A stretch of DNA of 64,000 nucleotides, from assembly GCA_963708135.1 (NCBI GenBank), contig OY970192.1:1280001-1344000 (forward strand), read 5' to 3'. The notes under the pieces are model-generated. The model did no database searches. It worked only from the letters and a program-made list of their open reading frames with translations, and was not told where the DNA came from. A program made the translations under genes and the position numbers. Position 1 is the stretch's first letter; each line of letters begins with the position of its first letter. Source of the DNA: an uncultured Gemmatimonadales bacterium (GTDB taxonomy: Bacteria > Gemmatimonadota > Gemmatimonadetes > Longimicrobiales > RSA9). Shown here piece after piece: positions 25,813 through 45,589 of the stretch.

Positions 25813-25939
25813 CAACTGGGATTTCGTCGGGGCCGCCTACGGCCTCACCTGGATCGTCCTGGCCGGCTATACGCTCTACCTCGTTCGCCGCAGGCACGCA
25901 GTCGAAGAGCTGGCAAGAAGGGAGGAGGAGGCGCGATGA
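25805..25939 (+). CDS. ccmD: CcmD-like small membrane protein, 44 aa
   Basis: MPNNWDFVGAAYGLTWIVL... single TM plus charged tail; lies between ccmC and ccmE, overlapping both. Confidence 0.7.
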   Translation: MPNNWDFVGAAYGLTWIVLAGYTLYLVRRRHAVEELARREEEAR

Positions 25940-26992: not shown

Positions 26993-27251
26993 TCCGGCCG
27001 GCCGACGTGCGCCGGCCAAGCCCGCGTCCGGTCTGGACCCGCCAGGCCGACTGAACCCGAGCGAGCCGAGCTGGGCGCGTGCGCCGCCGTTCGGCCCCGG
27101 GCATCGCCGGCCGCGCCAGAGCCCCTCGTCCACCACCCGCTTCGCCCGCCCCCGCCACCCCGTCCGCGCCCCGGCCCGTGCCGGCGACCGGGCGCATCAT
27201 TTTCAGGCGATTCCCCACGCCATCCCGGTGCCGACCTGGTGCCGGCTTCCC

Positions 27252-27266
27252 TGGCCCACCGCTTGC
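27252..27266 (+). promoter_or_regulatory. Candidate sigma54 -24/-12 promoter for the first multiheme operon
   Basis: TGGCCCACCGCTTGC has exact GG-N10-GC spacing with TGGC and TTGC. Confidence 0.5.
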
Positions 27267-27386
27267 CTTGTTACGTACCGGAAAGACGCTCCAGCGGCTC
27301 CCCTCCACCAGACAGGATTTCGCGACGTGACGCGACGAACTGGCAATGCGATGCCCCGCCTGGACAGCCGTGGCCGACCCAGCGGC

Positions 27387-27432
27387 GGGGGATATCCCCC
27401 GCACGGAGGGCCTCGGGCGGGGGATATCCCCC
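27387..27432. repeat. Twin perfect palindromes GGGGGATATCCCCC, 32 nt apart
   Basis: Copies at 27387-27400 and 27419-27432. Confidence 0.8.
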
Positions 27433-27494
27433 GGCCCCGCCCCGCACGGAGCGAGGAGGCGGCATGCCTTGACGGGGTGCTGCTGGAAGCTGGT

Positions 27495-27593
27495 ATGGAG
27501 GAACGTCGGCCGCTGCCGGCCTATCTGGCCATCGCGCTCTTTGCGCTCGTGATGGCGGCGTTGCTGACGCCGGGACTCACCCTGCGACTCTGA
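27495..27593 (+). CDS. Micropeptide, 32 aa, single hydrophobic helix (copy 1)
   Basis: MEERRPLPAYLAIALFALVMAALLTPGLTLRL; its 17-aa core is identical to 36201-36311 with only synonymous DNA changes. Confidence 0.7.
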   Translation: MEERRPLPAYLAIALFALVMAALLTPGLTLRL

Positions 27594-27602
27594 AGGGTTC
27601 TC

Positions 27603-29045
27603 ATGGAAAGCCTGAAGCGGCATCTCGGAATCCTGATGGCGATAGTTCTGACGGCGGGAGCGGTTGCGGGGTGTGTGGACGAGAAGAAGGTTCTCGAGCC
27701 GAGCCCGAGCTTCGAGACGCCGCCCGCGGCGGCGGAGGGCTTCCTCGGTTACGCCGACACCGTGGCGGGGAAGCCGGTATGCGGCAACTGCCACGCCGGC
27801 AAGTACGCGGAGTGGAAGCAGACGAAGCACGCGCAGGCGTGGGCGGACCTGCAGGCCAGCGGCCATGCCACGGCGGCGTGCGAGGGCTGCCACACGGTGG
27901 GCGCGTACGGGAACCTGGTCGTGGACTCGATGGTGGGGTGGACGGCGACGCACGACGCGCGCTATCACGACGTGCAGTGCGAGAGCTGCCATGGGCCGGG
28001 GATGACGCACGTGACGAACGCGGACGCGAGCCAGCCGCTGGCGTCGATGCTGGTCGGGGTCGGCCTGAAGAGCGGCTGCGGGGAGTGCCACTCGGGGACG
28101 CACAACCCCTTCCTCGAGGAGTGGTCGCAGTCGGCGCACGGACTCGTGCCCCACCAGTCGGGTCACGCCGGCCAGGCGGAGCCCTGCATTTCCTGCCACA
28201 CGGGGGACGTCGCGCTGCAGTCGTGGGGTGAGGATCCGAACTACCTGGAAAAGGACAGTCTGCAGGCGGTGGCCGGCCACCTGCCCATCAGCTGCCCGAT
28301 CTGCCACGATCCGCACAACGCGACGATCGACAAGCAGCTGCGCTTCCCGATCGATGTCGCCAGCGTGGACGACAACCTGTGTATGAAGTGCCACCACTAT
28401 CGGGGCACGCCGGACCCGACGTCGTCGCACGGCCCGATGTCGCCGCAGGGCCCGCTTCTGCTCGGACTGGCGGGCTGGCGCTCGCCGGACTTCGGGCCGA
28501 CCCAGGATCTAAAGGGAACGCACGGCTCTTCGGGCAACAAGGACCTGTGCGTCACCTGTCACGTGGCCCGGATGGACGTGACGGACGCGAGCGGCACCGT
28601 CGTCTTCAATTCGACCGGCCATCTCTTCGTGGCCACGCCCTGCCTCGACGCGGCCGGCAAGCCTACGGCGGCCGAGGACTGCGAGACCAGCCAGCGCAGC
28701 TTTGCGGCCTGCGCGCAGAGCGGCTGCCACGGAAGTCCCGACGCCGCGCAGTCGGCGGAGAGTGTGGCGCGCACCCGCATCGCCGACCTGGTGGCCGAGG
28801 TCAACGCGATGGTGAGCAGGGCGCCCGCGTCGGAGTTCAACACGAGCGACCCGACCTCGACCGCGGAGGGCGCGAAGTTCAACGCCGACCTCGGAGCCAT
28901 GGCGGGATCTCCGATCCACAATCCGTTCCTGATGGAGGCGCTGCTGACGGCCAGCATCAAGCAGCTCCAGAAGGACTACGGCATCGTGCCCACGGCCGGT
29001 GTCACCCTGAACAACGTCCTTCCCCGCGAGGTCATGTCGAAGTAG
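27603..29045 (+). CDS. Multiheme c-type cytochrome lipoprotein (8 CxxCH + 1 CxxxxCH), copy 1
   Basis: Lipobox VAGC; CGNCH, CEGCH, CESCH, CGECH, CISCH, CPICH, CMKCH, CVTCH, CAQSGCH; helical C-terminus. Confidence 0.9.
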   Translation: MESLKRHLGILMAIVLTAGAVAGCVDEKKVLEPSPSFETPPAAAEGFLGYADTVAGKPVCGNCHAGKYAEWKQTKHAQAWADLQASGHATAACEGCHTVGAYGNLVVDSMVGWTATHDARYHDVQCESCHGPGMTHVTNADASQPLASMLVGVGLKSGCGECHSGTHNPFLEEWSQSAHGLVPHQSGHAGQAEPCISCHTGDVALQSWGEDPNYLEKDSLQAVAGHLPISCPICHDPHNATIDKQLRFPIDVASVDDNLCMKCHHYRGTPDPTSSHGPMSPQGPLLLGLAGWRSPDFGPTQDLKGTHGSSGNKDLCVTCHVARMDVTDASGTVVFNSTGHLFVATPCLDAAGKPTAAEDCETSQRSFAACAQSGCHGSPDAAQSAESVARTRIADLVAEVNAMVSRAPASEFNTSDPTSTAEGAKFNADLGAMAGSPIHNPFLMEALLTASIKQLQKDYGIVPTAGVTLNNVLPREVMSK

Positions 29046-29080
29046 CGCCAATCCTTCGACACGCCCGAACGGGAGGAGAA

Positions 29081-29935
29081 ATGTCGAATCGAGTGCTGGG
29101 GTGGCTGGCGCTGGCCACCGTGACCGCCGCGTGCGGGGGGGACGCGCTCCCCCCCGCGCCGACGGCCACCACGGACAGCGTGGCCGTGGCGAGGATCCTC
29201 GCCACGGCGCCGCTCGGCGGCAGCACCCGTCCCTCCTCCGTGGCGGCCACGCCGGCGGACAGCGCCTCGAAGGCGGCGCCGCTCTCACCCACGGCGTTCC
29301 GCCATGAGAAGCACCGCGGCCTGGTCTGCCAGCGCTGTCACCCGGCGGTCCCCGGGCACGCGCGGCACACCAACGTCGCCTGCACGTCGTGTCACCCGGC
29401 GGTGCCGGTCACCGGGCCCGCGCCGGGCCCGGCCGAGTGCGGCGGGTGCCATCACGCGGCCGTGCAGGGCCGCGCGTGCACGAGCTGCCACGATCCCACG
29501 GCGCGTGGCACGCTGGCGCTACAGCGCTCCTGGGATCTTTCGGTGTGGGGCGCCCCACGTCTTCGCGACGTGAAGTTCGACCATCGCTGGCACGAGGCGC
29601 GGCCGTGCGGCGCCTGCCACACCGACCGGCCCTCCCTCGTCTCCACGCGTGCGTGCGCCTCCTGCCACGAGCACCACGAGGGCCGCGCGGATTGCCGCAT
29701 CTGCCACGTGGCCCCGCCCGTGGGCGTGCATACCCTGGCCGCCCACCAGGGCTGTGCGGGGCAGGGCTGCCACCGGGACCCGCCGGTCCGGAAGGCGACG
29801 CTCTCCCGCGACGAATGCCTGCTTTGCCATGCCGACCGCGAGCGCCACCAGCCCGGACGCGCCTGCGCGCAATGCCACATGCCCCAGGCGGCGGCGCGCG
29901 CGCCGCCGGCGGGGCGGGAGCCCACGTCCCCATGA
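29081..29935 (+). CDS. Decaheme cytochrome c lipoprotein (9 CxxCH + 1 CxxxxCH)
   Basis: Lipobox TAAC-GG; c3/c7-like FxHxxH motifs; GGAG RBS. Homologous to the C-terminal half of 50087-51925. Confidence 0.85.
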   Translation: MSNRVLGWLALATVTAACGGDALPPAPTATTDSVAVARILATAPLGGSTRPSSVAATPADSASKAAPLSPTAFRHEKHRGLVCQRCHPAVPGHARHTNVACTSCHPAVPVTGPAPGPAECGGCHHAAVQGRACTSCHDPTARGTLALQRSWDLSVWGAPRLRDVKFDHRWHEARPCGACHTDRPSLVSTRACASCHEHHEGRADCRICHVAPPVGVHTLAAHQGCAGQGCHRDPPVRKATLSRDECLLCHADRERHQPGRACAQCHMPQAAARAPPAGREPTSP

Positions 29936-31443
29936 GCCCGGATAGTCCTCGTTCCACCCTTCGCGCTCGCTCGCCCCTCCTGGCGGCGGCGCTGCTCCTC
30001 GCCGAGCTGGGCGCCGGCGCCGGCGCGCGTCCAGTCTGCGCGCAGAGCGTGAGGATCAGCGGCACCTCTACCGTGCGCTACCTCGAGCTGCAGCCCCTCC
30101 AGATCGACAGCATCCCCGTCTCGAGCACGACCGGCGACGGTGTGCTGCGTCGAGCGGGCGATGGCCGGACGGTGGAATGTGTCGATCCCGCCCCCTACTG
30201 CTATGCCTACGGCAGCGGCTCGGAGGTCTCGACCACGCCCGGGTTGCAGGACCTGCGCGTCAGTGCCTGGGGGTTCGGCCGCGGCGTGCGCTTCTACTCG
30301 CACGTGCGTGGCCGCGCCGTCGTAGCCGGCAGCTCCTCCCTCTGGCCTCTGGCCGGCGACCCCTTCGACATGCTGGAAGGGTACCTAGAGCTGGACCGCC
30401 CACGCTTCCGTGTACGGGCCGGCCGCCAGTGGGATGTCGGGGGACTCAGCTTCGCCAACTTCGACGGCGCCTCGCTGCTGGTTCGGCCGCTCCGCCAGCT
30501 GCGCCTGGAAGGTTACGGCGGCTGGAGCCTGCAGACCGGACTGAACGAGCCGGTCACCAGCGCCGCCATCGCGGCCGTCGAGCCGTTCGCGCCGGACTCG
30601 CGCGGCCTCCTCCTCGGCCTGCGTGCCGAAGCCAGGCCGGCCGCCGCGCTCTCGCTTTCCGCAACGTACGAGAGACAGGTCCGGCAGGACCAGGCGGGCC
30701 TCTACTCGGAGCGCGTGGCCACGGACGGACTGCTTCGCGGCGCCCTGGTGTCGCTGGACTGGGTCCTCCAGGCGGATCTCGCCAATGCGGAGCTCAACGA
30801 GCTGCGTGGTCGGGTCGTGTACACGCCGGCGTCGCGTCTCACGCTGCGCGCCTTCGCGCGCCGGCACCGGCCCTACTTCGAGCTGTGGACCATCTGGGGC
30901 GCCTTTGGCGCGGTCGGCTTCACGGAGGGAGGGATCGGCGGCAGCTGGCGGAGCGCGGGAGGGGCGCTGACCCTCGACGCCCAGGGCGCCCGCCGACGCT
31001 ACCTGGAGACCGGGGCGGAGCTCGGCTTCGCGCCGCTCCACGCCGACGGCTGGACGCTCGACGCCAACGCCGCGGCGCGTCTCGCTCCGCACTGGAGCCT
31101 GGACGGCCAGTACCAGTGGGACCTCGGCTTCGGTGCCGGCAAGAGCCAGGGTCTCGCGCGGCTCCGTCGCACGCTGCCCGGCGGCGCGTCGCTGGCCGCG
31201 ACCGCTACGGCGTTCCAGATGGCCGGTGAGCTCCGTGTGAGAACCGGCACGGTGGCGGGGCTCGGCCTCGAGGGTGGGCTGCCGATCGGGGCCCGCAACC
31301 GGCTGGACGCCTCCCTCTTCGACTACCGCCACTTCGGAGCGGCACCCGAGATGGGCCCGGACTGGAGCCAGCTGCGCGCCAGCCTCTCCTTCAGCTGGAC
31401 CGTCGGAGCCGAGCCCGGCCTGCCGGCACCCGGGAGGATGTGA
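29932..31443 (+). CDS. Putative outer-membrane beta-barrel protein (copy 1)
   Basis: Signal peptide; alternating amphipathic strands (YLELD..RFRVRAGRQW, LRLEGYGG, LRASLSFSW); no heme motifs; translationally coupled to flanking cytochromes; paralogue at 51922. Confidence 0.7.
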   Translation: MSPDSPRSTLRARSPLLAAALLLAELGAGAGARPVCAQSVRISGTSTVRYLELQPLQIDSIPVSSTTGDGVLRRAGDGRTVECVDPAPYCYAYGSGSEVSTTPGLQDLRVSAWGFGRGVRFYSHVRGRAVVAGSSSLWPLAGDPFDMLEGYLELDRPRFRVRAGRQWDVGGLSFANFDGASLLVRPLRQLRLEGYGGWSLQTGLNEPVTSAAIAAVEPFAPDSRGLLLGLRAEARPAAALSLSATYERQVRQDQAGLYSERVATDGLLRGALVSLDWVLQADLANAELNELRGRVVYTPASRLTLRAFARRHRPYFELWTIWGAFGAVGFTEGGIGGSWRSAGGALTLDAQGARRRYLETGAELGFAPLHADGWTLDANAAARLAPHWSLDGQYQWDLGFGAGKSQGLARLRRTLPGGASLAATATAFQMAGELRVRTGTVAGLGLEGGLPIGARNRLDASLFDYRHFGAAPEMGPDWSQLRASLSFSWTVGAEPGLPAPGRM

Positions 31444-32909
31444 TGCGCGCGCCCGCCCTGCCGGCGACTCTGCTGCTGGCCTTCGTCCTGGTCTGTGCGC
31501 CGCCTCCGGCCGCTGGCCAGAAGCCGCGCCCAGCTGGCGGCGCGGCGCCGGCGGCCGGGCGCTTCCCGCATGCTCGCCACGAGGGCCTCTTTCCGCAGTG
31601 CACCGTATGCCACCGTGGCGTGGAAACGGGCGACGCCGACGAGCGCTACCCCGCCCCCGCCGCATGCCGAAACTGCCACGACGGCTCGACGCGGCAGCCC
31701 GTCAACTGGACCGGGCCCACGGTGCGGGTCTCGAACCTGAGCTTCTCGCACCCCCGGCACGACGCGGCCGTGAGCTCGGCGGGGGAGAGCACCGCGTGCC
31801 TCGACTGCCACCGCACGCCGGGCGAGAGCGGCCGCATGGCGGTCAGTCCGCCGCAGCCGCAGTACTGCACCGGCTGCCATGCACACCACGCCTCCGCGCA
31901 CATGGCTCCGGAGGCGCGGTGCACCACCTGCCACCTCCCGCTCGCAAGCACGAGGCTCTCCGAAGCCGCCGTCGCCGCGCTCCCCAAGCCGCCCGACCAC
32001 GAGGCCGCGGACTGGGTGCTCCAGCATGCCCCCGCCAGCCCGGCCGTGGCCGCGGCGCGCTGTGCCATCTGCCACGCCCGTGAGAGCTGCGAGCGCTGCC
32101 ACATGAACGCCGCCTCGATCCCGGCCATCCAGGCGCTCGCGCGCGACCGACGTGTGGCCGCGCTGCTCCGCGACCGCGCGCCCAGCTATCCCCGACCTCC
32201 GAGCCACGGGAGCGGCAGCTGGGACTGGAAGCACGGCGCGGCGGCGGCCGGCGGGGCGGCTGGGCGCGAAGCCTCCGCATCGACCGCCGCCGGCTGCAGC
32301 GACTGCCATGCCCGGGCGAGCTGCCGTGCGTGTCACCGGGACGGCAGCACGCCCGCGATCGAGGCGCTCCCGGAGCCCGGCGGCCGCCGGCCGGCCGGTG
32401 TCAGCGTCGCGCCCCGACCGGTCCATGCCGCCGGCTTTCTGAAGGACCATCCGACGCAGGCGGCCGCGGGTGTCGCGTGCGCCGCCTGCCACACCCGGAG
32501 TTTCTGCGTGGACTGCCACCAGGGACAGAAGGCCGGCTACCACGCCCCGAACTTCGTCGAGCAGCACGGCCCCGAGGCGTACGCGAACGACACGCAATGC
32601 TCGGAGTGCCACAGCAACGAGGCCTTCTGTCGTACCTGCCACCTGCGCACGGGGCAGGGGGCCCGCACCCGCAACGGCGCGGCCTTCCACGGCGAGCAAC
32701 CGCTGTGGCTGCTGAGCCATGGCCAGGCGGCGCGGCAGGGACTCGAAGCCTGCACCGCCTGCCACACCCAGACCAGCTGCGCGGAGTGCCACTCCGCAGC
32801 CGGTGGCTGGGGCGTCAACCCGCACCCGGCGAATTTCGACGCCAGACGCGCCCGCGAACGAAACCCCTCGAGCTGTCTGCACTGCCACGCGGAGCTGCCC
32901 AATGACTAG
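31443..32909 (+). CDS. 16-heme c-type cytochrome (copy 1)
   Basis: Signal peptide; 16 CxxCH including five closely paired doublets such as CAICHARESCERCH. Confidence 0.88.
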   Translation: MRAPALPATLLLAFVLVCAPPPAAGQKPRPAGGAAPAAGRFPHARHEGLFPQCTVCHRGVETGDADERYPAPAACRNCHDGSTRQPVNWTGPTVRVSNLSFSHPRHDAAVSSAGESTACLDCHRTPGESGRMAVSPPQPQYCTGCHAHHASAHMAPEARCTTCHLPLASTRLSEAAVAALPKPPDHEAADWVLQHAPASPAVAAARCAICHARESCERCHMNAASIPAIQALARDRRVAALLRDRAPSYPRPPSHGSGSWDWKHGAAAAGGAAGREASASTAAGCSDCHARASCRACHRDGSTPAIEALPEPGGRRPAGVSVAPRPVHAAGFLKDHPTQAAAGVACAACHTRSFCVDCHQGQKAGYHAPNFVEQHGPEAYANDTQCSECHSNEAFCRTCHLRTGQGARTRNGAAFHGEQPLWLLSHGQAARQGLEACTACHTQTSCAECHSAAGGWGVNPHPANFDARRARERNPSSCLHCHAELPND

Positions 32910-34266
32910 ACGCGTGGAGAACGCGGAGCGCCGCTCCTCGCGCAGCTCCTGGCACGGATCCCTGCGGCGCGGGGCGCTCGCGGCGTGGATGCTCCTCCTC
33001 CTGCTCGTGCCCGTGCTGGCGCGCGCCCAGGAGAAGCCCACCGCCGACAGGTGCATCGCGTGCCATCGGAAGCTCCCGGAGGAACGCCTTTCCGCGCCCG
33101 CCCGGACGTTCTCCGACGACATCCACTCCCAGAAGGGTCTCGGTTGTCTGGCCTGTCACGGCCTCGTGGCGCAGCACGGCGGCGATCCGCGAAACATCGT
33201 GCCCGGAACGGGCTTCCTCACCAGGCCCGCGCGGCGCGACATTCCGGCCCTTTGCGGCCGTTGCCACTCCGATGCGGCGTTCATGAAGCGCTACGACCCG
33301 ATGCTCCGTGTCGACCAGGTCGCGGAGTACCGGAGCTCCGTGCACGGCAGACGGCTCTTCGAGGACGGCGACACGGCCGTGGCGACCTGTATCGACTGCC
33401 ATCCCGCGCACCGCATCCTGGCGCCCTCGGAGCCCGCCTCGTCGGTGTATCCTACGCATGTGGCCGACACCTGCGGCCGCTGCCACTCCGATCCCGCACG
33501 CATGGCCGCCTACGGCCTGCCGACCGACCAGGCGAAGAAGTGGCGCGCCAGCGTGCACGGAGAGCAGATGCTGAAGAAGGGCGACACCTCCGCGCCCACC
33601 TGCAACGACTGCCACGGCAATCACGGCGCCGTGCCGCCCGGCGTCTCGGACGTCCCGCACGTGTGCGGCCAGTGTCATTCGACCATCGCCGAGCTGTTCG
33701 CCGGAAATGGACACGACAGCATCTTCGTCGCCGGCAAGCTGCCGGGTTGCGTCACCTGCCATAGCAACCACGAGATCGAGCAGCCGAGCGATTCCCTGCT
33801 CGTCGTGCGGGCGCGCACCGTGTGCGGCCGCTGCCACCGGTCGGGCGACCCGGCAGGGCGACAGTTCCTCGTGATGCGGTTGCTGGTGGACACGCTGGGC
33901 GCCGCGCGCGCCCGGGCGCAGGCCGTGCTCACCCGGGCGGACAACCTCGGCATGGACGTCAGCCAGGCGCAGTTCGAGCTGAGTGACGTGACCAACGCAC
34001 TGACAAAGGCCCGCAACGCGATCCACTCCTTCCGGGCCGACTCGGTGGCCGCCCAGGTCTCCGCGGGCCTGAAGACCGCCGACCACGCCGCCCGCCAGGG
34101 CCGAGCGGCGCTCGCGGAGCACCGCTTCCGCCGTGTCGGGCTCGGGCTCTCCGTGCCCGTCATCCTCGGCCTCGCCGGCGGACTCTGGCTCCGCCTGCGG
34201 ACCCTCGAGGGCGAATCCGAAGACGATGAGGACGACGGCCACCACCCACGTGGCCAGGAGCGCTGA
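32902..34266 (+). CDS. Nonaheme cytochrome c with C-terminal membrane anchor
   Basis: 9 CxxCH; SVHG repeats; helical stalk and a C-terminal TM (GLGLSVPVILGLAGGLWL); directly upstream of the Rieske gene. Confidence 0.85.
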   Translation: MTRRVENAERRSSRSSWHGSLRRGALAAWMLLLLLVPVLARAQEKPTADRCIACHRKLPEERLSAPARTFSDDIHSQKGLGCLACHGLVAQHGGDPRNIVPGTGFLTRPARRDIPALCGRCHSDAAFMKRYDPMLRVDQVAEYRSSVHGRRLFEDGDTAVATCIDCHPAHRILAPSEPASSVYPTHVADTCGRCHSDPARMAAYGLPTDQAKKWRASVHGEQMLKKGDTSAPTCNDCHGNHGAVPPGVSDVPHVCGQCHSTIAELFAGNGHDSIFVAGKLPGCVTCHSNHEIEQPSDSLLVVRARTVCGRCHRSGDPAGRQFLVMRLLVDTLGAARARAQAVLTRADNLGMDVSQAQFELSDVTNALTKARNAIHSFRADSVAAQVSAGLKTADHAARQGRAALAEHRFRRVGLGLSVPVILGLAGGLWLRLRTLEGESEDDEDDGHHPRGQER

Positions 34267-34268
34267 TC

Positions 34269-34742
34269 ATGTGCGACTGTCAGAACGCCCCCCCCGCACC
34301 GCCGCCGCCGCTGCTCTCCCGCAAGCGGTTCATCGACTGGCTGCTGGGCACGACCTTCGGTGGCCTCGTCGTCGCCGTCGCCTATCCGGTGCTGCGCTAC
34401 ATCGTGCCCCCGGAGGCGGGCGAGGCCTCCCTCAACTCGGTGACGCTCCCGGTCAAGGCCTCGCAGGTGGCCGCCAACTCCGGCCAGATCTTCAAGTTCG
34501 GCAACAAGCCGGGCATCCTCATCCGCACCCCGTCGGGCGAGCTGCGCGCGTTCACCGCGGTCTGCACGCATCTCGGCTGCATCGTGCAGTACGACAGCGC
34601 CCATTCCGACATCTGGTGCGCCTGCCACAATGGCCACTATGACACCACCGGGCGGAACGTCTCGGGCCCGCCGCCCAAGCCGCTCTCGCCCTACGCCGTC
34701 AACGTGCGCGGCGACGAGATCGTCGTCAGCAGGGAGGCCTAG
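34269..34742 (+). CDS. Rieske [2Fe-2S] subunit of a bc/b6f-type complex
   Basis: CTHLGC and CACHNG boxes, GPPPKPL, Tat-like SRKRF followed by a TM helix. Confidence 0.92.
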   Translation: MCDCQNAPPAPPPPLLSRKRFIDWLLGTTFGGLVVAVAYPVLRYIVPPEAGEASLNSVTLPVKASQVAANSGQIFKFGNKPGILIRTPSGELRAFTAVCTHLGCIVQYDSAHSDIWCACHNGHYDTTGRNVSGPPPKPLSPYAVNVRGDEIVVSREA

Positions 34743-34743
34743 C

Positions 34744-35826
34744 ATGGAGGATCCACGCCGCGGCCTCGCCGCCCGCCTCCAGGCCTGGCTGGACGACCGC
34801 ATCGGCTTCAGCGCCCTCCTGCCGCTGATCCGCAAGAAGCGGGTCCCGGTGCACCGCCATTCGATCTGGTACTTCCTCGGCGGCATGGTGCTCTTCCTGT
34901 TCATCCTCCAGGTGTGCACCGGCATCCTCATGCTGTTCTACTACCGCCCGAGCGCCGAGCAGGCCTACGACTCCGTGCAGTTCCTGATGACCCAGGCGAG
35001 ATTCGGCTGGCTCATCCGCTCCATCCACGCCTGGGGCGCCAATCTCATGATCTTCGTGCTGTTCCTCCACATGTTCAGCGTCTGGTTCCTGAGAGCCTAT
35101 CGCGCCCCCCGGGAGCTGACGTGGATGAGCGGCCTCGGTCTCCTCGGTGTCGTCCTCGGTCTGAGCTTCACCGGCTATCTCCTGCCCTGGAACACCCTGT
35201 CCTACTTCGCCACCCGTATCGGAACCTCCATGCCCGGCGTACTCCCCGGCATCGGGCCCTTCATCCAGCGCATGATGCGCGGCGGCGACGACGTGAGCGG
35301 CGCGACCCTGACCCGCTTCTACGCGCTCCACACCTCCGTCCTTCCCGGCCTCACCTTCCTCCTGCTGGGACTCCATGTCCTGCTCGTCCAGCGCCACGGG
35401 ATGAGCGTGCCCCGGAGCGTCGAACGGAAGGGACCGCCCCGCTCCGTCCCCTTCGTCCCCGACTTCCTGCTCCACGACCTCATCGGCTGGCTCCTCGCCC
35501 TCGCCGCCATCGCCGCCCTCGCCGTCTTCTTCCCCGCCGAGCTCGGCACCAAGGCCGATCCCTTCAGCCCCGCCCCCGCCGGGATCAAGCCCGAATGGTA
35601 CTTCCTCGCGCCCTACCAGACGCTCAAGTACCTCCCCGCCACCATCCTCGGCATCGCTGGCGACGCGCTCGGCGTTATCGTCTTCGGCCTCGCTGCCGGC
35701 CTGCTCGTCTTCCTCCCGTTCCTGGACCGCCCGCGCAGCGGCGAATACACCCCCTTCTGGCGCGTCGTGGCCTTCCTCACCCTCGCCTACCTCATCGTCT
35801 TCACCTACCTCGGACTGAGCTCCTGA
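34744..35826 (+). CDS. Cytochrome b of a Rieske/cytochrome b complex
   Basis: IRSIHAWGA...LHMF, FTGYLLPW, RFYALH...LHV, IKPEWYF. Confidence 0.92.
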   Translation: MEDPRRGLAARLQAWLDDRIGFSALLPLIRKKRVPVHRHSIWYFLGGMVLFLFILQVCTGILMLFYYRPSAEQAYDSVQFLMTQARFGWLIRSIHAWGANLMIFVLFLHMFSVWFLRAYRAPRELTWMSGLGLLGVVLGLSFTGYLLPWNTLSYFATRIGTSMPGVLPGIGPFIQRMMRGGDDVSGATLTRFYALHTSVLPGLTFLLLGLHVLLVQRHGMSVPRSVERKGPPRSVPFVPDFLLHDLIGWLLALAAIAALAVFFPAELGTKADPFSPAPAGIKPEWYFLAPYQTLKYLPATILGIAGDALGVIVFGLAAGLLVFLPFLDRPRSGEYTPFWRVVAFLTLAYLIVFTYLGLSS

Positions 35827-36200
35827 GCCGCCGCTGAGCCCGCCGGCGCCACATTCCTGCCGCCGCCTCCTCGCGCCCATGCGGCGCGGTCGATCCAACC
35901 CCGCGACGGGGGCGCCTCGCCCCATCCGCCCCCTCACCAGGGGTCCTTCCGCGGCCGAGGACGATGGCTTGCCCTTTGCCCCTCTCCCTTCCCGAGATCC
36001 GTGGTTGGATCCCTTTCGAAAAGGCCGAAACACCGCGATGTCACGCGAAAAATTGTGCGGCGTGAGGCCCGCTCGAAGGCGCAGCCAGATCGGTTTGCGG
36101 GACAGTGCGCCCGAATACGCTGCGAGCGGCTGGGACAAATTGCCCGACGGAGGACGAGATGTCGATCGATCCACGAACCGAACGCGGGGAGGGCCCGGGA

Positions 36201-36311
36201 ATGAACCGTGGTGAAACGAGGCGACAGCCAATGGTGGCGTATGTCGCGATGGCGCTTTTTGCACTCGTAATGGCGGCGTTGCTGACGCCTGGCCTGACTT
36301 TGGGATTCTGA
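36201..36311 (+). CDS. Micropeptide, 36 aa (copy 2)
   Basis: MNRGETRRQPMVAYVAMALFALVMAALLTPGLTLGF; ends 10 nt before the second nonaheme paralogue. Confidence 0.7.
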   Translation: MNRGETRRQPMVAYVAMALFALVMAALLTPGLTLGF

Positions 36312-36321
36312 GGATACCGAC

Positions 36322-37800
36322 ATGATACCAGACTTCAAGCGACATATCGGCGTCTGCGTGGCCGCCGTCCTTGTGGCGTTGGCGGTGACGGGGTGCGTGG
36401 ACGAGAAGAAGGTGTTCGTGGAGCGTCCGCTGTTCGAGCAGCCGTCGGCGTCCGCCGCCGGCTTCATCGGCTACACGGACACGACGACGCAGAAGACGGT
36501 GTGTGGCAACTGCCACGTGGATCATCAGGCGGAATGGACGCAGACGAAGCACGCGTCGGCCTGGGTCGATCTGCAGGCGAGCGGCCATGCCTCGGCCACG
36601 TGCGAGCCGTGCCACACCGTGAACTCGCAGGGCAACGCGGTCACGGATCCGAACGTCGGGTTCGTGGCCACGAAGGACCCGCGCTACCACGACGTGCAGT
36701 GCGAGGCGTGCCATGGGCCTGGCCTGGATCACGTCACGACGCCGGACGGCAACACCGCGCCGCTGGCCTCGATCGCGGCGGACAGCGGGATGACGAACGG
36801 CTGCGCCGAGTGCCACACCGGCACGCACCATCCGTTCGTGGAGGAGTGGCAGAAGTCGAAGCATGCGACGCTCGAGCCGCACGTGCGCGACGGCATCATC
36901 GCGGGCACGGACCGCTCCGAGTGCCTCAAGTGCCACTCGGCCCAGGGCGCGCTCAAGCAGTGGGGCGTGACGAGCAACTACCTGGAGAAGAACGCCGCGC
37001 CGCAGGACTATCTTGGCATCACGTGCGCGGTGTGCCACGATCCGCACAGCGACAAGAACGTCGGCCAGCTGCGTTTCTCGATCGGCGCGCAGGACACGGC
37101 CACGAACCTTTGCATGAAGTGCCACCAGCGCGAGGGTGAGGCGAGCCCGACCAACTCCCGTGGTCCGCACTCGCCCGAGGGCCCACTGCTGCTCGGCGAG
37201 GCCGGCTGGTTCCCGCCCAACCTGATCGCCCAGGGGATCGTCCCGGGCAGCATCAAGGGCACCCACGGCTCGGAGGCCAATCCGGGGCTGTGCGCCACCT
37301 GCCACGTGAGCAGCTTCACGGTCACCGATCCCACGATCGGCGGCACGTTCACGGCCACGGGGCACCTGTTCTCGGCCACGCCGTGCATCGATCCGACGAC
37401 GAACCGGCCGACCACGGATGAGAGCTGTGACATCACGCAGCGCAGCTTCAAGGCCTGCACGGCCAGCGGCTGCCACGGCTCGGAGGCGGTCGCCCGTTCC
37501 GCGGAGCAGACGGCGCGCATCCGCATCCAGAACCTCGTCGATGAGGCCTACCGCCTCGTCGCGCTGGCTCCGGCGTCGGAGTTCAGCACGACGGATGGCA
37601 AGGTCACGACGGCGGAGGGCACCAAGTTCAACGCGCAGCTGGGTGATGAGGCGAACAAGCCCGGCAGCGTCGTTCACAACCCGTTCCTGGTCGAGACGCT
37701 GCTCACGGCCAGCATCAAGCAGATGCAGACGGACTACGGCCTCACGGCCGCGCCCGGCATCTCGCTGCAGAACGTTCTCAAGCAGCCCGGGATGAAGTAG
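36322..37800 (+). CDS. Multiheme c-type cytochrome lipoprotein (8 CxxCH + 1 CxxxxCH), copy 2
   Basis: Lipobox VTGC-VDEKKV; collinear with 27603-29045 (RYHDVQCExCHGPG, HNPFL, LLTASIKQ shared). Confidence 0.9.
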   Translation: MIPDFKRHIGVCVAAVLVALAVTGCVDEKKVFVERPLFEQPSASAAGFIGYTDTTTQKTVCGNCHVDHQAEWTQTKHASAWVDLQASGHASATCEPCHTVNSQGNAVTDPNVGFVATKDPRYHDVQCEACHGPGLDHVTTPDGNTAPLASIAADSGMTNGCAECHTGTHHPFVEEWQKSKHATLEPHVRDGIIAGTDRSECLKCHSAQGALKQWGVTSNYLEKNAAPQDYLGITCAVCHDPHSDKNVGQLRFSIGAQDTATNLCMKCHQREGEASPTNSRGPHSPEGPLLLGEAGWFPPNLIAQGIVPGSIKGTHGSEANPGLCATCHVSSFTVTDPTIGGTFTATGHLFSATPCIDPTTNRPTTDESCDITQRSFKACTASGCHGSEAVARSAEQTARIRIQNLVDEAYRLVALAPASEFSTTDGKVTTAEGTKFNAQLGDEANKPGSVVHNPFLVETLLTASIKQMQTDYGLTAAPGISLQNVLKQPGMK

Positions 37801-38021
37801 CCGGCAAGGCCGGCGATCGGGCGGCGTCGTTCGTGCCGCCCGAGCCGCCGGCCCGAAGATCGATCGACATGGAACGGCCGGGCCGGCGCAGGATCGCCGG
37901 TCCGGCCGTTCCATGTGCGGGGCAGCGCCTCTTGCTCCGGCAGCACGCTCGTTCCCGACCCGAGGAGGATCCGTGATCCGGCCCCGAGCGCGCGGAGATC
38001 AACCGCGGCACCGGCGGGCTC

Positions 38022-38436: not shown

Positions 38437-39753
38437 GTGATCCTACGGGAGAGGTCCATGCAGATCAAGTTCCTGGCCCGCGAGGGCATGCAGAAGAGTC
38501 GGATTGCCGAGCGGCTGGGCGTCAGCCGCCAGACCGTCTACAACCACCTGAAGCGAAAGGAGGGAGAGCCGTTTCCGAAACCGCGATCGAAACGGGTCTC
38601 GAAGCTGGAGCCGTTCAAGGAGCACATCCGGGCGCGGCTGGAGTGCTTCGATCTGCCGGCCACGGTGCTCGTCCAGGAGATCCGGGCGCAGGGCTATCGT
38701 GGCGGACTGACGCTGCTGCGGGAGTTCGTGCGCCCGCTGAAGCAGGAGTTCGTGCGGCGGGTGACGGAGCGCTTCGAGACGCTGCCGGGGCAGCAGGCCC
38801 AGATCGACTGGGGGGAGTGCGGCAGCATCGAGGTGGGCGGCGAGCGCCGGACGCTCTACGTCTTCGTCATGGTGCTGGGCTACAGCCGGATGATGTACGC
38901 GCGCTTCACGACCAGCTCGAAGCTGCCGGTGCTGCTGGCCTGTCTCGTTCGTGCCTTCAATGCGCTCGGCATCCCGAAGGAGATCCTGGTCGACAACATG
39001 AAGCAGGCGGTCGAGCAGCACGACGTCACCACCGGCACGGTGCGCTGGAACAAGGGCTTCCTGGATTTCGCCGAGCACCACGGCTTCCTTCCGGTGGCGA
39101 GCCCACCGTACTGGCCACGGGTGAAGGGGAAGGTCGAGCGGGGCGTGGGCTACCTCAAGACCTCGTTCCTGGAGGGCCGCACCTTCACCGACCTCGAGGA
39201 CCTGAACCGGCAGCTTGCGGTCTGGCTGGACACGGTGGCCAACGTGCGGATCCACGGCACCACCGGGCAGCGGCCGATCGACCGCCATGCGCTCGAGCTC
39301 GCGCACCTGCGGCCACTCGCAGCCGTGCCGGCCTACGACGTGCGCCCGGTGGAGCTCCGTACGGTCCCCTCCGACAGCCACATCAGCTACGGCGGGGTGC
39401 GCTACAGCGTGGATCCCATCGCGGTGGGTGGCACGGTGGTGGTCCGCTCGGAAGGGGGCGCGGTGGGAGACGCCTTCTCGGTCTACTTCGGTGCGCACCT
39501 GGTCGCGTGCCATCGGAGAAGGCCCAGCGGCTCGCCCCGCGTGACCCTGCCCGAACACGCGGCGCAGATCCGACGCCTCACGCGCGGCAGCGCCGAAGCG
39601 GCCGCTCGCCGCCGAGGCCATCAGCCAAGCTACGTACAGGTGGGCCAAGGCGGAGGCATTCTCTTGCTGGAGCGGATCCAGCGCTCGGCTCCGCAGGTCC
39701 AGGTGCAGCCGCTCTCGGCGTATGAGCGCCTCCTCGGGGACGGTGCGGCGTGA
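38437..39753 (+). CDS. istA: IS21 transposase IstA
   Basis: N-terminal HTH; RFETLPGQQAQIDWG, DN, KGKVERGV, N.RIHGTT, YSV. Start may be ATG 38458. Confidence 0.93.
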   Translation: MILRERSMQIKFLAREGMQKSRIAERLGVSRQTVYNHLKRKEGEPFPKPRSKRVSKLEPFKEHIRARLECFDLPATVLVQEIRAQGYRGGLTLLREFVRPLKQEFVRRVTERFETLPGQQAQIDWGECGSIEVGGERRTLYVFVMVLGYSRMMYARFTTSSKLPVLLACLVRAFNALGIPKEILVDNMKQAVEQHDVTTGTVRWNKGFLDFAEHHGFLPVASPPYWPRVKGKVERGVGYLKTSFLEGRTFTDLEDLNRQLAVWLDTVANVRIHGTTGQRPIDRHALELAHLRPLAAVPAYDVRPVELRTVPSDSHISYGGVRYSVDPIAVGGTVVVRSEGGAVGDAFSVYFGAHLVACHRRRPSGSPRVTLPEHAAQIRRLTRGSAEAAARRRGHQPSYVQVGQGGGILLLERIQRSAPQVQVQPLSAYERLLGDGAA

Positions 39754-40520
39754 GTGCGGCCGTGAGCTATGAGCGGGTGCGGGACCAGCTCGGGCGCCTG
39801 AAGCTCGAGTCCGCGCTTGCCTCCCTGGACAGCGTCCTCGAGCAGGGGCAGAAGCAGGAGCAGCTCCCGGTTGAAGTGCTCGATGAGCTGCTCGGCCGCG
39901 AGCTCGCCACCCGCTTCGAGCGCCGCGTCAGCACCAACCTGAAGCTCAGCGGCATTCCGGCACCCAAGACCCTGGAGAGCTTCGACTTCGACGCCCAGCC
40001 CTCCGTGCCGAAGGAGGTCATCCGGGAGCTCGCCACGCTGCGCTTTCTCCATCAGGGCGAGAACGTCGTGTTCCTCGGGCCCTGCGGGGTCGGCAAGAGC
40101 CACCTGGCCGTGGCCCTCGCGATCCGGGCGATCGAGCGCGGGCACCGCGCCTACTTCCTCAGCCTCCACGAGCTGGTGACCCGCTCCCGCGTGGCGCGCG
40201 AGAAGAACCGCCTCGACATCCTCCTGCGCGTCATCATCCGCGCCGATCTCTTCCTGCTCGACGAGGTGGGATACCTCCCGCTCGAGAGCGAGGACGCCAC
40301 CTTCCTCTTCGAGGCCGTAAGCCGCCGCTACGAGGCCAACAAGTCGATCCTCCTCACCAGCAACAAGAGCTACGGGCAGTGGGACGAGATCTTTCCGGAT
40401 CCGGTCCTCGCCACCGCGCTCCTGGACCGGCTGCTGCACCACGCCACCACCATCAACATCCGCGGCGAGAGCTATCGTCTCCGCAACCGCCGCGGCGCCG
40501 GCCTCACCACCACCCACTGA
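39750..40520 (+). CDS. istB: IS21 helper ATPase IstB
   Basis: GPCGVGKSHLA, LLDEVGY, LTSN, LDRLLHHA, GESYR. Confidence 0.95.
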   Translation: MSAAVSYERVRDQLGRLKLESALASLDSVLEQGQKQEQLPVEVLDELLGRELATRFERRVSTNLKLSGIPAPKTLESFDFDAQPSVPKEVIRELATLRFLHQGENVVFLGPCGVGKSHLAVALAIRAIERGHRAYFLSLHELVTRSRVAREKNRLDILLRVIIRADLFLLDEVGYLPLESEDATFLFEAVSRRYEANKSILLTSNKSYGQWDEIFPDPVLATALLDRLLHHATTINIRGESYRLRNRRGAGLTTTH

Positions 40521-40678: not shown

Positions 40679-42034
40679 TCAGCGTCCTTCGCGCCCCACC
40701 ACCGCCCGGTGGAAGTCCGCGGGCATGCGGTCGTAGTCCCAGGCCTCGTTCGAGCCGTAGTGGCAGTACGAGCAGAGCCCCTGGTGTGGCGCCGGGCCGA
40801 AGCTCGGCGGCGCCGGCGCCGCACGGCCCGCGAGGCGGTAGGCCTGCGCGGCGCGCTCGACGCTGGTCCGGAGCACGCGGTCGCTGAGCTCCAGGTTGTG
40901 CTGTCCGCCGGCCTTCTCCACGATGGCCAGCATCGTCGTGGCGCTGCCGAGCAGGGACTTCACCGTGTCGGCGCTCACGCCGGCCAGGCTCCTGCGCGCC
41001 TGGTCGGTGTAGCGCCTGGCCTCGGCCGTGCGGGCGCGCGTGCCGTCCAGCCACCACCGCAGCACCGTCGTGTACTCCTGCCGGTGGCAGCCCGCGCAGG
41101 AGCGCGCCTGTCCCTTGATGGCGACGTCGGCCGCGGTCGCGGCGCCGGGCTGTGGCGGCACGTGGCAGGAGCGGCACGTCATGCCGGCCACGAACTTCCG
41201 GCTGGGTGAGGCCGGCAGCCCCGGCACCAGCCCGAGCAGCAGCCGCTGCTGCGCCTGGTGGACGTCGCCGTGGCAGCTCTCGCAGTAGCTCGGTCCGGTG
41301 GAATCGGCCGCCAGGGAGACCTCGTGCGCCCGCTGGTGGCAGTCGCCACAGCGGAGCACGACGGCGGAGCTCATGGCCTGCACCCGGTGCAGGTCGGAGC
41401 TGTGGCATGACCTGCAGGCGATCCCCTCGTGCTGCGGGTGCACGTCCTTGCCGATCGCGGCCGCATCCACGGCCGCGGAGCTGCCGTGGCAGCCGCGGCA
41501 GCGCGAGGCGGCCACGGCCGTCGGCGGGGCGGAGACGTCGTAATGGCAGCGCACGCAGCCCGTCTCCAGCCAGGGCAGGGAGGAGTGCGGCACCGGTACG
41601 CCCTGGCTGGTCAGCGCGACGTGCTTCTCGTGCGCGTGGCAGAAGCGGCAGTCCTGGGGCTGCTTGGCCGCGATCCGGTCCACGTGGCAGAGGGCGCACG
41701 CGTCGGCCGAGGTCGTCAGCCGGTTCGTCCCCGGCGGATGCGTGTGGCACCCGGCGCACGACGGGGCGATGACGCCGTTCGGTGCGTGGTTCGCGTGCTT
41801 GAACTCGACGTCCCCGAGCGTGGCCTGCTGCGGGCCGCCATCGGTATGGCAGCCTGAGGCGGTGCACGCGGACGCCGGCACGGTAGCCGGCTGCGTCCCT
41901 ACCACGCGGCCCTGGTGGCACGCCGCACAGGCGAGCGCGCCGTGCGGCTCCGCCGCAGCGCGCGCGGCCGGCTCCGCCGGCTTGCACGCGGAGAGTGCGG
42001 CGAGAGCCGCGCAGATCAGCAGAGCTCGACCCAT
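40679..42034 (-). CDS. 13-heme cytochrome c lipoprotein (12 CxxCH + 1 CxxxxCH)
   Basis: Lipobox LSAC; motifs from CAACH to CSYCH; helical region with GQHN before the last heme. Confidence 0.85.
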   Translation of the reverse strand: MGRALLICAALAALSACKPAEPAARAAAEPHGALACAACHQGRVVGTQPATVPASACTASGCHTDGGPQQATLGDVEFKHANHAPNGVIAPSCAGCHTHPPGTNRLTTSADACALCHVDRIAAKQPQDCRFCHAHEKHVALTSQGVPVPHSSLPWLETGCVRCHYDVSAPPTAVAASRCRGCHGSSAAVDAAAIGKDVHPQHEGIACRSCHSSDLHRVQAMSSAVVLRCGDCHQRAHEVSLAADSTGPSYCESCHGDVHQAQQRLLLGLVPGLPASPSRKFVAGMTCRSCHVPPQPGAATAADVAIKGQARSCAGCHRQEYTTVLRWWLDGTRARTAEARRYTDQARRSLAGVSADTVKSLLGSATTMLAIVEKAGGQHNLELSDRVLRTSVERAAQAYRLAGRAAPAPPSFGPAPHQGLCSYCHYGSNEAWDYDRMPADFHRAVVGREGR

Positions 42035-42915
42035 AGCATCATCCCGATGAGCGCGAGACCGATCGCGAGTGAGAGGAACCCCAGCGTCGCCGCCACGAGG
42101 GACTGGCGCCGGCCGGGTGGAGGGGCGGGCGCATCGACGAGCGGCGGCGCGCCCGGATCGCGCTGCGCCAGTTCCTCGATCCGTTCCGCCACCAGTGGGT
42201 GCTCCTCCTCCATGTAGTCCTTCGTGGCCCGGCCCGTGAACATCACGGCGTCCAGCGGGAATTTCTCCGGGCGCAGGTGGACGTTGAAGAAGTGCACGGT
42301 GAAGATGAACGCGGTGGCCAGCACCGCCTCGTCGGCGTGGATGACGGTCGAGACGTTGAAGAGCGAGCCGGGCAGGAAGCGCGCGAAGAACTCCGGGAAC
42401 CAGAGCGTCAGTCCCGAGAAGCCGATCATGGCCACGCCCCAGAAGACGGCGAGGTAGTCGAACTTCTCCATGTAGCTGTAGCGCCCGAACTTCGGCCGCG
42501 GCCCGAGGCCCAGGAACCACTTCCACTGCTGGTAGAACTGGACCACGTCGCTGGGCTGCGGCACCATCGACTCCGGTCCCCACAGCATCCGCTTGCGGTG
42601 CCGGGAGCGCGCGAGCGCGACGATGACGTAGCCCAGGTGCGCTCCGAAGTAGGCGAAGGTCACGAGCGCGGCCAGCCGGTGCAGCCGGCCGGCCATGGTG
42701 ACCCCGCCGAGCAGCCGGATCAGGGGCCGCGACCACGGCGCGCAGCTGAAGCGCAGCGGCATGCCGGTGATGACCAGCGTGAAGAAGGAGATCATCACCG
42801 TCGCGTGCGTCAGACGGTGGTAGAGCCGGAAGCGCCACACGAACGGGCCCCGGCCGCGCTGGGCGGCGTCCATCGGGACCGGTTCTGCCGGTGCGGGGGT
42901 CTGTACGCTGCTCAT
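42016..42915 (-). CDS. Di-heme cytochrome b membrane subunit (FdnI/CbcL b-domain-like)
   Basis: HRLTH, ITGMPL, LHRLAA, PKFGRYSYMEKFDYLAVFWG, IHADEA, FTVHFFNVH. Confidence 0.8.
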   Translation of the reverse strand: MSSVQTPAPAEPVPMDAAQRGRGPFVWRFRLYHRLTHATVMISFFTLVITGMPLRFSCAPWSRPLIRLLGGVTMAGRLHRLAALVTFAYFGAHLGYVIVALARSRHRKRMLWGPESMVPQPSDVVQFYQQWKWFLGLGPRPKFGRYSYMEKFDYLAVFWGVAMIGFSGLTLWFPEFFARFLPGSLFNVSTVIHADEAVLATAFIFTVHFFNVHLRPEKFPLDAVMFTGRATKDYMEEEHPLVAERIEELAQRDPGAPPLVDAPAPPPGRRQSLVAATLGFLSLAIGLALIGMMLWVELC

Positions 42916-44218
42916 GCCTCACCTCCGTGCTTCGATCCGGCCCCCCGCCTGCGCGCGCCGCCGACTCCGACGCGCACGAGCCAGAGCAGCGTGTGCAGCC
43001 CGAACACGCTCAGGACCCCGACCAGCAGCAGGCTCATGAAACGATAGACCCAGTAGAGGATCGGGTTCTTGGCGGCATCGTGCGGATCCGCGTGCGGCTG
43101 GAACTCGACGAAGGAGGCCGACGCCTGCTTGTGGCACTGCCCGCACGTCTGCACCAGGTTCGCACTGGCGACCGTCGAGCGCGGATCGGAGGCCGGCAGG
43201 ATCCCGTGCGCCCCGTGGCAGTCCGCGCACGTCGCGGCCGCCGGAGAGCCGAGCGATGTCGCCTGCCCGTGATACGAGTCGCCGAAGGTGTCGGCGTAGC
43301 GCTCGTGGCAGGCGGTGCACTTCTCGGTGGCGGCGAGCTCGAACGCCTGGCCGCGGGTGCGCAGCATGTCGTGCGCACCGTGACAGGTCGTGCAGGTCGG
43401 CGGCTGCTCGGCCGGCGCCGGAACCGCCCCGCTGCGGTGGGCGCGCGCCGGCGTACCCGTGAGCACGGCCGTCCCGTGCGCGTCGCCGCGCCAGGCGGCC
43501 GCGATGCGCTCGTGGCATGCTCCGCACGTCTCGACCTGCCTGCTCGCGGCCAGCCGGCTCCCCGCGCCGTCCGGAGGCTGCACGTCGTGCGCGCCGTGGC
43601 AGCCGGCGCACGGCACGCTGTCCGCGTGCGCCAGCCGCGGCGCCATCCGGGCCGCATCGTGGCAGGTGATGCAGCGGCCGTTCATGGTCCGCATCGCCGC
43701 GCCCAGGGAGAGCTCCGCCGCAGGCCGGACATCGTGCAGCCCGTGACACTGCTGGCAGGCGACGGGGGCCTTCCCATTGTGACCCGCGTGCACCCCTTCC
43801 TTCCACGTCGCCGCCTGCTTCTCGTGACAGGAGGCGCAGCTCCGCGTCTGCACATCGGTGCCTTCCTTCGGGTGCGGAAACCCGCCGTACCCGCGATGGC
43901 ACTCGGTGCACGCCAGCTTGCCGTGGACGGAATGCCGGACCACCGCGTCGGGCGTCAGCAGCGATTCCGCGCGTGCGAACGTCGGGGCCTGCTGCCGCAG
44001 GAGCTCGAGCTCGCCGTGGCAGCGCTCGCACCGCTCGACCGGGCGCTCGCTCGCCGCTGCCCGTGGCGTCTGCGCGGCGCCGGCGAGCGGCGGGGGAGAC
44101 GTGGCCTGCGGCATGGCCGCGGCCCTCCGGGCTCCGCCCCGGAACGCCGCTCCCGCCAGCACGGCCAGGATGAGGAGCACGCCCGCCAGCGCGGGGGCGC
44201 GGAAGCTCAGGCGCCGCT

Positions 44219-44222
<4 letters not shown>
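42912..44222 (-). CDS. 11-heme cytochrome c with C-terminal TM helix (CbcL c-domain-like)
   Basis: Signal peptide; 11 CxxCH; DSYHG, HGILP..DPRS, C-terminal FMSLLLVGVLSVFGLHTLLW. Confidence 0.85.

Positions 44223-45589
<1,367 letters not shown>

Follow-up and report, generated by a model that had tools for sequence, protein, structure and literature searches.

To judge from the available part of one account (PMC12648545), it is well documented that respiratory and transport complexes can have small subunits with a single helix, the genes of which lie within or beside the operons of these complexes. CydX (37 aa) and CioY (34 aa), both single-helix subunits of cytochrome bd-type oxidases, are encoded beside the genes of their complex, are easily missed and diverge fast, and KdpF (29 aa) as well as PetN, PetL, PetG and PetM of the cytochrome b6f complex (about 29–37 aa) are described in the same part as small single-helix stabilising subunits (PMC12648545). 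Small membrane proteins are systematically under-annotated, yet several of them are essential to respiratory complexes. KdpF is encoded by the first gene of its operon.

In CbcL a c domain with nine haems is joined in one polypeptide to a dihaem b protein of the HydC/FdnI type, and both CbcL and CbcBA of Geobacter are inner-membrane quinol:multiheme-cytochrome oxidoreductases with sigma-54-dependent regulators, as far as the available portions of two reports extend (PMC6295460; bioRxiv 10.1101/2021.04.15.440034). According to the same portions the cbcBA operon also includes hypothetical ORFs, and a small helix subunit of CbcL is not described in them (PMC6295460; bioRxiv 10.1101/2021.04.15.440034). 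In a limited literature search, no report was found of a small protein encoded before multiheme cytochrome genes in members of the Gemmatimonadota. To our knowledge, the electron-transfer chains of this phylum are almost unstudied.

The locus described here is situated in a stretch of 64,000 nucleotides (the window) from a Gemmatimonadota genome of 5.45 Mb on a single contig (G000). Two short ORFs on the forward strand, pep1 (27495..27593, 32 aa from the ATG at 27495, MEERRPLPAYLAIALFALVMAALLTPGLTLRL) and pep2 (36201..36311, 36 aa, MNRGETRRQPMVAYVAMALFALVMAALLTPGLTLGF), end 9 and 10 nt, respectively, before the ATG of two paralogous cytochrome genes on the same strand, cyt1 (27603..29045, 480 aa) and cyt2 (36322..37800, 492 aa), as a preliminary description of this DNA had read them. 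The label nonaheme lipoprotein which was given there to the cytochromes is fair, as both contain eight CXXCH motifs, one CX4CH motif and a lipobox cysteine.

With less than about 50 aa and one hydrophobic helix the peptide has the dimensions of the small accessory subunits. It is of the same size as CydX and CioY and likewise adjoins genes of respiratory membrane complexes. However, Pfam, NCBIfam and PDB profile searches revealed no sequence similarity to them, and the neighbouring genes encode multiheme c-type cytochromes and b-type quinol-dehydrogenase modules instead of a bd oxidase. Furthermore, CydX is widespread whereas the peptide occurs in 4 of 73 genomes of one family, and its binding to a partner is hypothetical. 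Like kdpF, pep1 is the first gene of its operon, but the peptide has no KdpF match, only one of seven members hits PetL, without significance (E = 0.37), and one peptide-bearing genome (G457) is devoid of a b6-type cytochrome b. The likeness to CbcL and CbcBA concerns the neighbours of the peptide and is judged by Pfam domain make-up alone: the cluster facing the peptide gene combines an MHC (multiheme cytochrome) domain, fused or coupled to a dihaem b-type protein, with an adjacent sigma-54 response regulator.

Coding potential and sequence features

The two ORFs share a core of 17 codons (ALFALVMAALLTPGLTL) with identical protein sequence and 8 nucleotide differences, all of them synonymous, seven at codon position 3 and one being a CTG/TTG exchange; the count given in the preliminary description was exact. 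When 8 substitutions were placed randomly in the core, an all-synonymous result was obtained in 24 of 1,000,000 trials, so that the pattern exceeds chance. The longest identical run comprises 17 aa in the peptide pair versus 8 aa in the cytochrome pair, and pS and pN are 0.52 and 0.17 for pep1/pep2 compared with 0.47 and 0.31 for cyt1/cyt2. Since the peptide pS is as high as that of the cytochromes, the identity is not due to recent gene conversion. The flanking DNA, said earlier to have diverged, indeed aligns poorly 5' of the two ORFs.

In total, five copies of the peptide gene were found in four genomes, two in G000 and one each in G457, G449 and G523, the latter two belonging to genus g166. 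All of them are intact ORFs of 32–36 aa with the stop codon in register; the G457 copy has the same sequence as locus L017 and was counted once, and a metagenome contig (L052) repeats it. Over 29 aligned codons of the five copies, 17, 11 and 29 columns vary at codon positions 1, 2 and 3, respectively. The comparison of G449 with G523 gives pS 0.73 and pN 0.08, and pN/pS of the peptide is about 0.1–0.3. RNAalifold predicted for the five coding regions (one reference offset by 3 nt) a weak fold (−11.2 kcal/mol; covariation term +0.12) that lacks net covariation, and a Rfam gathering scan of 26900-37900 resulted in 0 matches.

DNA with a high GC content (71.5 %) yields many spurious ORFs, and long antisense ORFs overlap both pep1 and pep2. 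Nevertheless, a chance ORF, a relic signal peptide or conservation originating from the opposite strand is barely credible, since the sense frame is the best conserved of all six (19/23), start, stop and length are retained in four genomes, the substitutions show codon periodicity and random placement so rarely matched the all-synonymous core. By all sequence criteria applied, pep1 and pep2 are real protein-coding genes under purifying selection and probably translated. Selection on the encoded peptide, as proposed in the preliminary description, is corroborated by codon periodicity, dN/dS, intact ORFs elsewhere and the lack of conserved RNA structure or a Rfam match. The expectation that gene callers would miss such a gene is only partly true: family members are sometimes called, among them pep1 itself in an 80-aa form (P0002, 27351-27593, from ATG 27351).

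The start of pep1 is uncertain, with a weak Shine-Dalgarno sequence (GGAAG) in front of ATG 27495 and an in-frame GTG at 27477 as an alternative that would give 38 aa. At 27464-27479 a two-codon mini-ORF (ATG CCT TGA) stands behind GAGGAGG, the strongest Shine-Dalgarno sequence of the region, and ends 4 nt before this GTG, so that pep1 may start at 27477 by termination-reinitiation. The Shine-Dalgarno sequence of pep2 (GGGGAGGG) lies 8–15 nt upstream, and the long form of pep2 is favoured because the family-invariant R and P precede the internal ATG at 36231.

The members of the family comprise 32–37 residues, with a short polar N-terminus ending in an invariant R-x-P, a hydrophobic helix (consensus AYVAIaLFALvvAALL) and a short C-terminal tail (consensus TPGLTLGF). 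The overall consensus is E-R-R/Q-P-x-x-A-Y-V-A-I-x-L-F-A-L-x-V-A-A-L-L-T/I-P-G-L/Y-T-L-G-F, in which R, P, Y, F-A and A-A are invariant in 9/9 sequences. The Kyte-Doolittle mean over 19 residues amounts to 2.3–2.6, and AlphaFold2 modelled one helix at residues 7–31 with a mean pLDDT of 86. Most likely the peptide would reside in the inner membrane as a single-pass helix. The invariant Arg beside the helix suggests an N-in topology; the N-terminal net charge spans −2 to +2 across the family and the positive-inside rule therefore leaves the topology unfixed. No one-sided conserved face of the helix was detected, as the helical moment was reached by 3035 and by 417 of 5000 shuffles. The three copies located before a cytochrome gene retain the tail P-G-x-T-x-G-F, whereas g166, in which the peptide is not followed by a cytochrome gene, has T-S-L-L-A-A-G-L in its place, a correlation which is a lead resting on two lineages only.

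A profile search in 1.84 billion representative proteins (E ≤ 0.001) retrieved five matches, P0002 of the window and four other members (P0001, P0003–P0005), all either 36–37 aa long or 80-aa upstream-extended forms. On sequence grounds the peptide is without significant match to any known family in Pfam, NCBIfam, PDB profile and ESM Atlas searches. In Pfam, 0 families were found for pep1, and the best hits across seven members were PF10399 (E = 0.057), DUF6480 (0.11) and PetL (0.37), each in one of the seven. NCBIfam returned only PGF_CTERM (E = 0.23, again 1/7), the best PDB profile E-value was 1.5 and the best ESM Atlas feature score was 0.88, to unnamed clusters. A comparison of the 68-aa ORF form with shorter proteins (30–36 aa) gave no candidate sharing three words. 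Membership in CydX, KdpF, PetL, PetN, PetG, PetM or CcmD was rejected, as no Pfam or NCBIfam model matched significantly. Also rejected was a Tat signal or Rieske N-terminal anchor: RR is present in 6/9 and RQ in 3/9 sequences, no cargo domain is attached, and PF10399 was matched by the single member mentioned above.

Gene neighbourhoods

In the window pep1 is preceded by ccmA, B, C, D and E, a gene for a DUF2231-like membrane protein and a spacer of 500 nt. The DUF2231-like gene is absent from the peptide loci of G457, G449 and G523. The order in G457 is ccmABCDE, about 700 nt, peptide gene and nonaheme cytochrome gene, with 12 nt between peptide stop and cytochrome start. In its position downstream of ccmABCDE pep1 resembles CcmD of cytochrome c maturation System I, also a small single-helix protein encoded with ccm genes. 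Together with the equivalent place of the G457 copy and the haem-rich lipoprotein with a conserved GCVDEK N-terminus encoded by the following gene, this speaks for a helper of cytochrome c maturation or lipoprotein handling (Ccm, Lgt/Lsp or sorting) which is not a subunit of the finished complex. Such a helper is quite unlikely, however, as G000 possesses its own CcmD of about 44 aa (a separate CcmD-like ORF between ccmC and ccmE, ending at 25939), the peptide matches neither a CcmD model nor any other Ccm family, the same cytochrome is matured without it in most genomes and the g166 peptide gene is not near ccm genes.

The pep1-cyt1 operon, with pep1 as its first gene, continues over 29081..35826 (+). 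It encodes an MHC lipoprotein of 284 aa (29081-29935, +, Shine-Dalgarno sequence GGGAGGAG), a putative outer-membrane barrel of 503 aa without Pfam match (29932-31443, +), MHCs with 16 (31440-32909, +) and 9 CXXCH motifs (ORF 32719-34266, +) and, as its last products, a Rieske protein (34269-34742, +) and a cytochrome b6/subunit IV-like protein (ORF 34630-35826, +, true start probably ATG 34744). An ORF of 684 aa at 29389-31443 was dismissed as a high-GC artefact, since the third-position GC profile shows two genes here, those for the 284-aa and 503-aa proteins. To judge by their sequences, the genes at 29046-31443 together with the flanking MHCs and the Rieske/b6 pair look like a porin-cytochrome conduit joined to a bc-type complex. 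In G000 the entire segment that extends from pep1 to cytochrome b, 8.7 kb in length, has the appearance of an addition.

The pep2-cyt2 unit begins 375 nt after the cytochrome b gene. pep1 heads an operon ending in Rieske and cytochrome b6, pep2 stands shortly behind it, and one of the seven members has the PetL match already given, which is not significant. All this would fit a small subunit, analogous to PetG, PetL, PetM or PetN, of the Rieske/cytochrome b6-type complex whose genes lie between both copies. We regard this as very unlikely in view of G457 (99 % complete), where the peptide is present but no protein homologous to the b6-type cytochrome b of the window was detected (E ≤ 1e-10), of G449 and G523, in which cytochrome b homologues lie on contigs other than that of the peptide, and of the missing significant match to a Pet family.

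Downstream of cyt2 an IS21-type element (38437..40520, +; istA 38437-39753, istB 39750-40520) separates the unit from a convergent CbcL/Cbc-like cluster (40679..45589, −). The latter consists of an MHC gene homologous to 'MHC466' (about 40679-42010, −), a gene for a dihaem cytochrome b561-type membrane protein (42016-42915, −), a further MHC gene (42912 to about 44132, −) and a gene for a sigma-54 response regulator (44219-45589, −).

A solitary peptide gene is found in G449 and G523. Its own GGAGG is located 5 nt (G449) or 6 nt (G523) before it, a strong bidirectional terminator and a convergent gene come after it, and there is no downstream gene on its strand. It directly faces the orthologous cluster, in the order MHC466, MHC-cytochrome b561 fusion (686 aa) and sigma-54 regulator. 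For G457 the facing arrangement rests on an exact overlap of 99 nt between the end of the contig past the cytochrome and the end of the contig with MHC466, cytochrome b561 and MHC. Each of the four genomes therefore has the peptide gene, accompanied by a cytochrome gene or not, tail to tail with the MHC, cytochrome b561, MHC and sigma-54 regulator cluster, and pep2 is accordingly the positional orthologue of the copies elsewhere. The peptide gene lies within the operon of the presumed complex or directly next to it: 3/5 loci have 9, 10 and 12 nt, respectively, between its stop codon and the start of a nonaheme lipoprotein cytochrome gene, and in 4/4 genomes it faces the CbcL-like cluster. The G457 assembly breaks at the place equivalent to the IS21-type element of the window.

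The stand-alone copies also bear on the leader peptide which the preliminary description had listed among its options, that is, a regulatory uORF whose translation and not whose product controls the cytochrome gene. The location immediately 5' of the cytochrome start (9–12 nt) would be expected of it. Yet a leader acts on a gene in cis, and in G449 and G523 the peptide gene, equipped with its own Shine-Dalgarno sequence, is succeeded by a terminator. The amino-acid-level constraint is strong across the whole hydrophobic helix, and the weak RNAalifold fold and the empty Rfam scan reported above likewise argue against it. The leader reading is disfavoured by the stand-alone copy and the amino-acid constraint, and we consider it highly improbable.

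The CbcL-like protein is encoded by one fused ORF of 686 aa in G449, G523, G425, G453, G532 and G503 (at L059, 8152-10212, −) and by two abutting genes for MHC and cytochrome b561, overlapping by 4 nt, in G000 (42016-44132, −) and the majority of the remaining genomes of the family. A single in-frame TGA is present in several of the matches to its MHC part.

Distribution and possible role

Profile searches of whole genomes detected the peptide in 4 of 73 genomes of family f1, G000 included, corresponding to 3 of 37 genera. A sample of 401 genomes of the order contained the same four and one 22-bit match inside a 133-aa frame, which was judged to be noise. In a phylum sample of 401 genomes, searched with a 3-sequence profile, the best match outside G000 had E = 0.008 (18.5 bits), and about 725 other Gemmatimonadota genomes beyond family f1 gave no credible match. 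A metagenome scan with the peptide alignment recovered one locus, L052, with the same peptide as L017. By comparison, the nonaheme cytochrome is present in 47/73 and a CbcL-like protein in 34/73 genomes of family f1; the contrast with the cytochrome marks the peptide as accessory and not as its general partner.

Among 11 cytochrome loci of the species collection only L017 has the peptide. In a survey of 44 rows upstream of cytochrome homologues, not de-duplicated and including about eight doubtful start guesses, a small hydrophobic ORF was found only at L077 (pep2) and L017/L061, and six other rows showed just the C-terminal helix of a larger upstream membrane protein. At L010, L080, L082, L088 and L099 the gene just 5' of the nonaheme cytochrome encodes a multi-pass membrane protein of unknown family with the C-terminus ...WIALPVxVxxLxxxHR..., unrelated to the DUF2231-like protein of G000. 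When five peptide-less genomes were inspected beyond the MHC466 gene, an ORF of this kind was absent from the first 1.6 kb and a cytochrome homologue from about the first 6.5 kb. Most homologous cytochrome loci thus lack the ORF, which the preliminary description had named as evidence against its reading; where the ORF is present, however, no frameshift interrupts it, and its conservation is not accounted for by RNA structure.

The cytochromes cyt1 and cyt2 are 54 % identical (BLASTP, 263/489), and the lipobox Cys24 is invariant in 28 homologues. A third paralogue of G000 outside the window (G000:C1:1076817-1080582, −) appears as two matches about 2.36 kb apart and is perhaps split by an insertion. 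No peptide ORF was found upstream of it, so that the association with nonaheme paralogues, as described earlier, holds for cyt1 and cyt2 and fails for the third. In the cytochrome tree cyt2 forms a clade with the peptide-linked cytochrome of G457 (99/98), and cyt1 groups with three peptide-less cytochromes (L008, L009, L080; 100/100), which requires at least two gains or losses of the peptide. The peptides group in the opposite way: pep1 and pep2 are 72 % identical, and each of them is about 58 % identical to the G457 peptide. As far as sequence comparison can tell, this points either to duplication of the peptide gene within G000, with one copy placed before the cyt1 operon, or to a common partner that holds both copies.

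Our tentative preference, by analogy with CydX, is for an accessory small membrane subunit or an assembly or stabilising helper of the surrounding cytochrome module. This module would be composed of the lipid-anchored nonaheme cytochrome and a membrane quinol-dehydrogenase module (CbcL-like MHC plus dihaem cytochrome b), in which the peptide may have a role comparable to that of CydX, CioY, KdpF and PetN in their complexes. In G000 and G457 the gap of 9–12 nt between stop and start would couple translation of peptide and cytochrome, so that both products might be made together. In G461, another genome of family f1, nonaheme cytochrome genes lie directly beside CbcL-like genes on the same strand.

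Several findings count against the accessory-subunit reading. The peptide is dispensable for both candidate partners, given its presence in so few of the genomes that encode them, the closest relatives of cyt1 (L008, L009, L080) and the third G000 paralogue do without it, and no candidate partner is adjacent in every case. G449 (96 % complete) has the peptide and no cytochrome homologue at E ≤ 1e-10, G457 contains, besides the peptide, the CbcL-like cluster and three paralogues of the cytochrome but no homologue of the b6-type cytochrome b, and most genomes with a candidate partner have no peptide; consequently, no single neighbour is an obligatory partner. Of the small membrane subunit or export factor envisaged in the preliminary description the hydrophobic single helix stands, whereas a role dedicated to the nonaheme lipoprotein is weakened by the unequal distribution and by G449.

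The main competing explanation is a free-standing small membrane protein with a function unrelated to cytochromes, for instance a regulator of a transporter, kinase or protease, a stress protein or a hydrophobic peptide of the type I toxin kind, whose neighbourhood would be gene order inherited among few related genera. It is doubtful but deserves serious weight. The form in g166 stands alone with its own GGAGG and terminator, purifying selection persists in this genus even though G449 has no cytochrome homologue, the patchy distribution is that expected of an accessory gene and the conservation shows no one-sided face. The convergence with the CbcL-like cluster could be inherited gene order among related genera, and it need not mean co-expression. 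On the other hand, the junction of 9–12 nt between peptide and cytochrome, present at three loci, has been retained across two genera and by both paralogous units, and the peptide was apparently copied together with a second cytochrome operon or placed precisely before it. As to toxins, typical type I systems differ from the peptide gene in copy number, synteny, mobility and antisense partner: the gene is single-copy and stably syntenic, with no sign of mobility or of an antisense partner.

A more specific version of the accessory-subunit reading, in which the single helix would dock the inner-membrane-anchored nonaheme lipoprotein onto a CbcL-type quinol dehydrogenase and the P-G-x-T-x-G-F tail would serve as the cytochrome-binding element, is unlikely. 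Co-folding of cyt1 (residues 24–480, 28-row alignment) with the peptide (7-row alignment) gave a score of 0.00 in both runs, which were done without controls and carry no weight either way.

The new peptide family lies within a dense multiheme-cytochrome island with lipoprotein cytochrome, putative porin, Rieske/b6 pair and CbcL-like module. If the peptide were a subunit or assembly factor, it would mark cytochromes cooperating at the inner membrane, and a tagged 36-aa protein would be a handle for purification of the complex. The docking arrangement, if true, would add a new component to a possible extracellular or periplasmic electron-transfer chain in Gemmatimonadota. The very narrow distribution of the peptide limits its general importance.

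Elements upstream of the peptide genes

Upstream of pep1, at a distance of 63–108 nt, the palindrome GGGGGATATCCCCC is present in two copies (27387-27400 and 27419-27432) 32 nt apart, and is otherwise absent from the 5.45-Mb genome. Behind each copy stands CGCACGGAG, directly adjoining the first and 10 nt away from the second. The pair may be an operator for a dimeric regulator or may form hairpins. In front of pep2 the 11-mer GGGACAAATTG (36132..36142, +), which occurs once in G000, lies 59–69 nt upstream of the gene and recurs ahead of the solitary peptide genes in G449 and G523 (L059 about 6357-6376; L060 upstream of 10701, −). In these two genomes it is part of CCGGGACAA...TTGTCCGG, two segments that could pair with each other and would then abut the Shine-Dalgarno sequence. 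The 11-mer is a candidate for a shared promoter or regulatory element.
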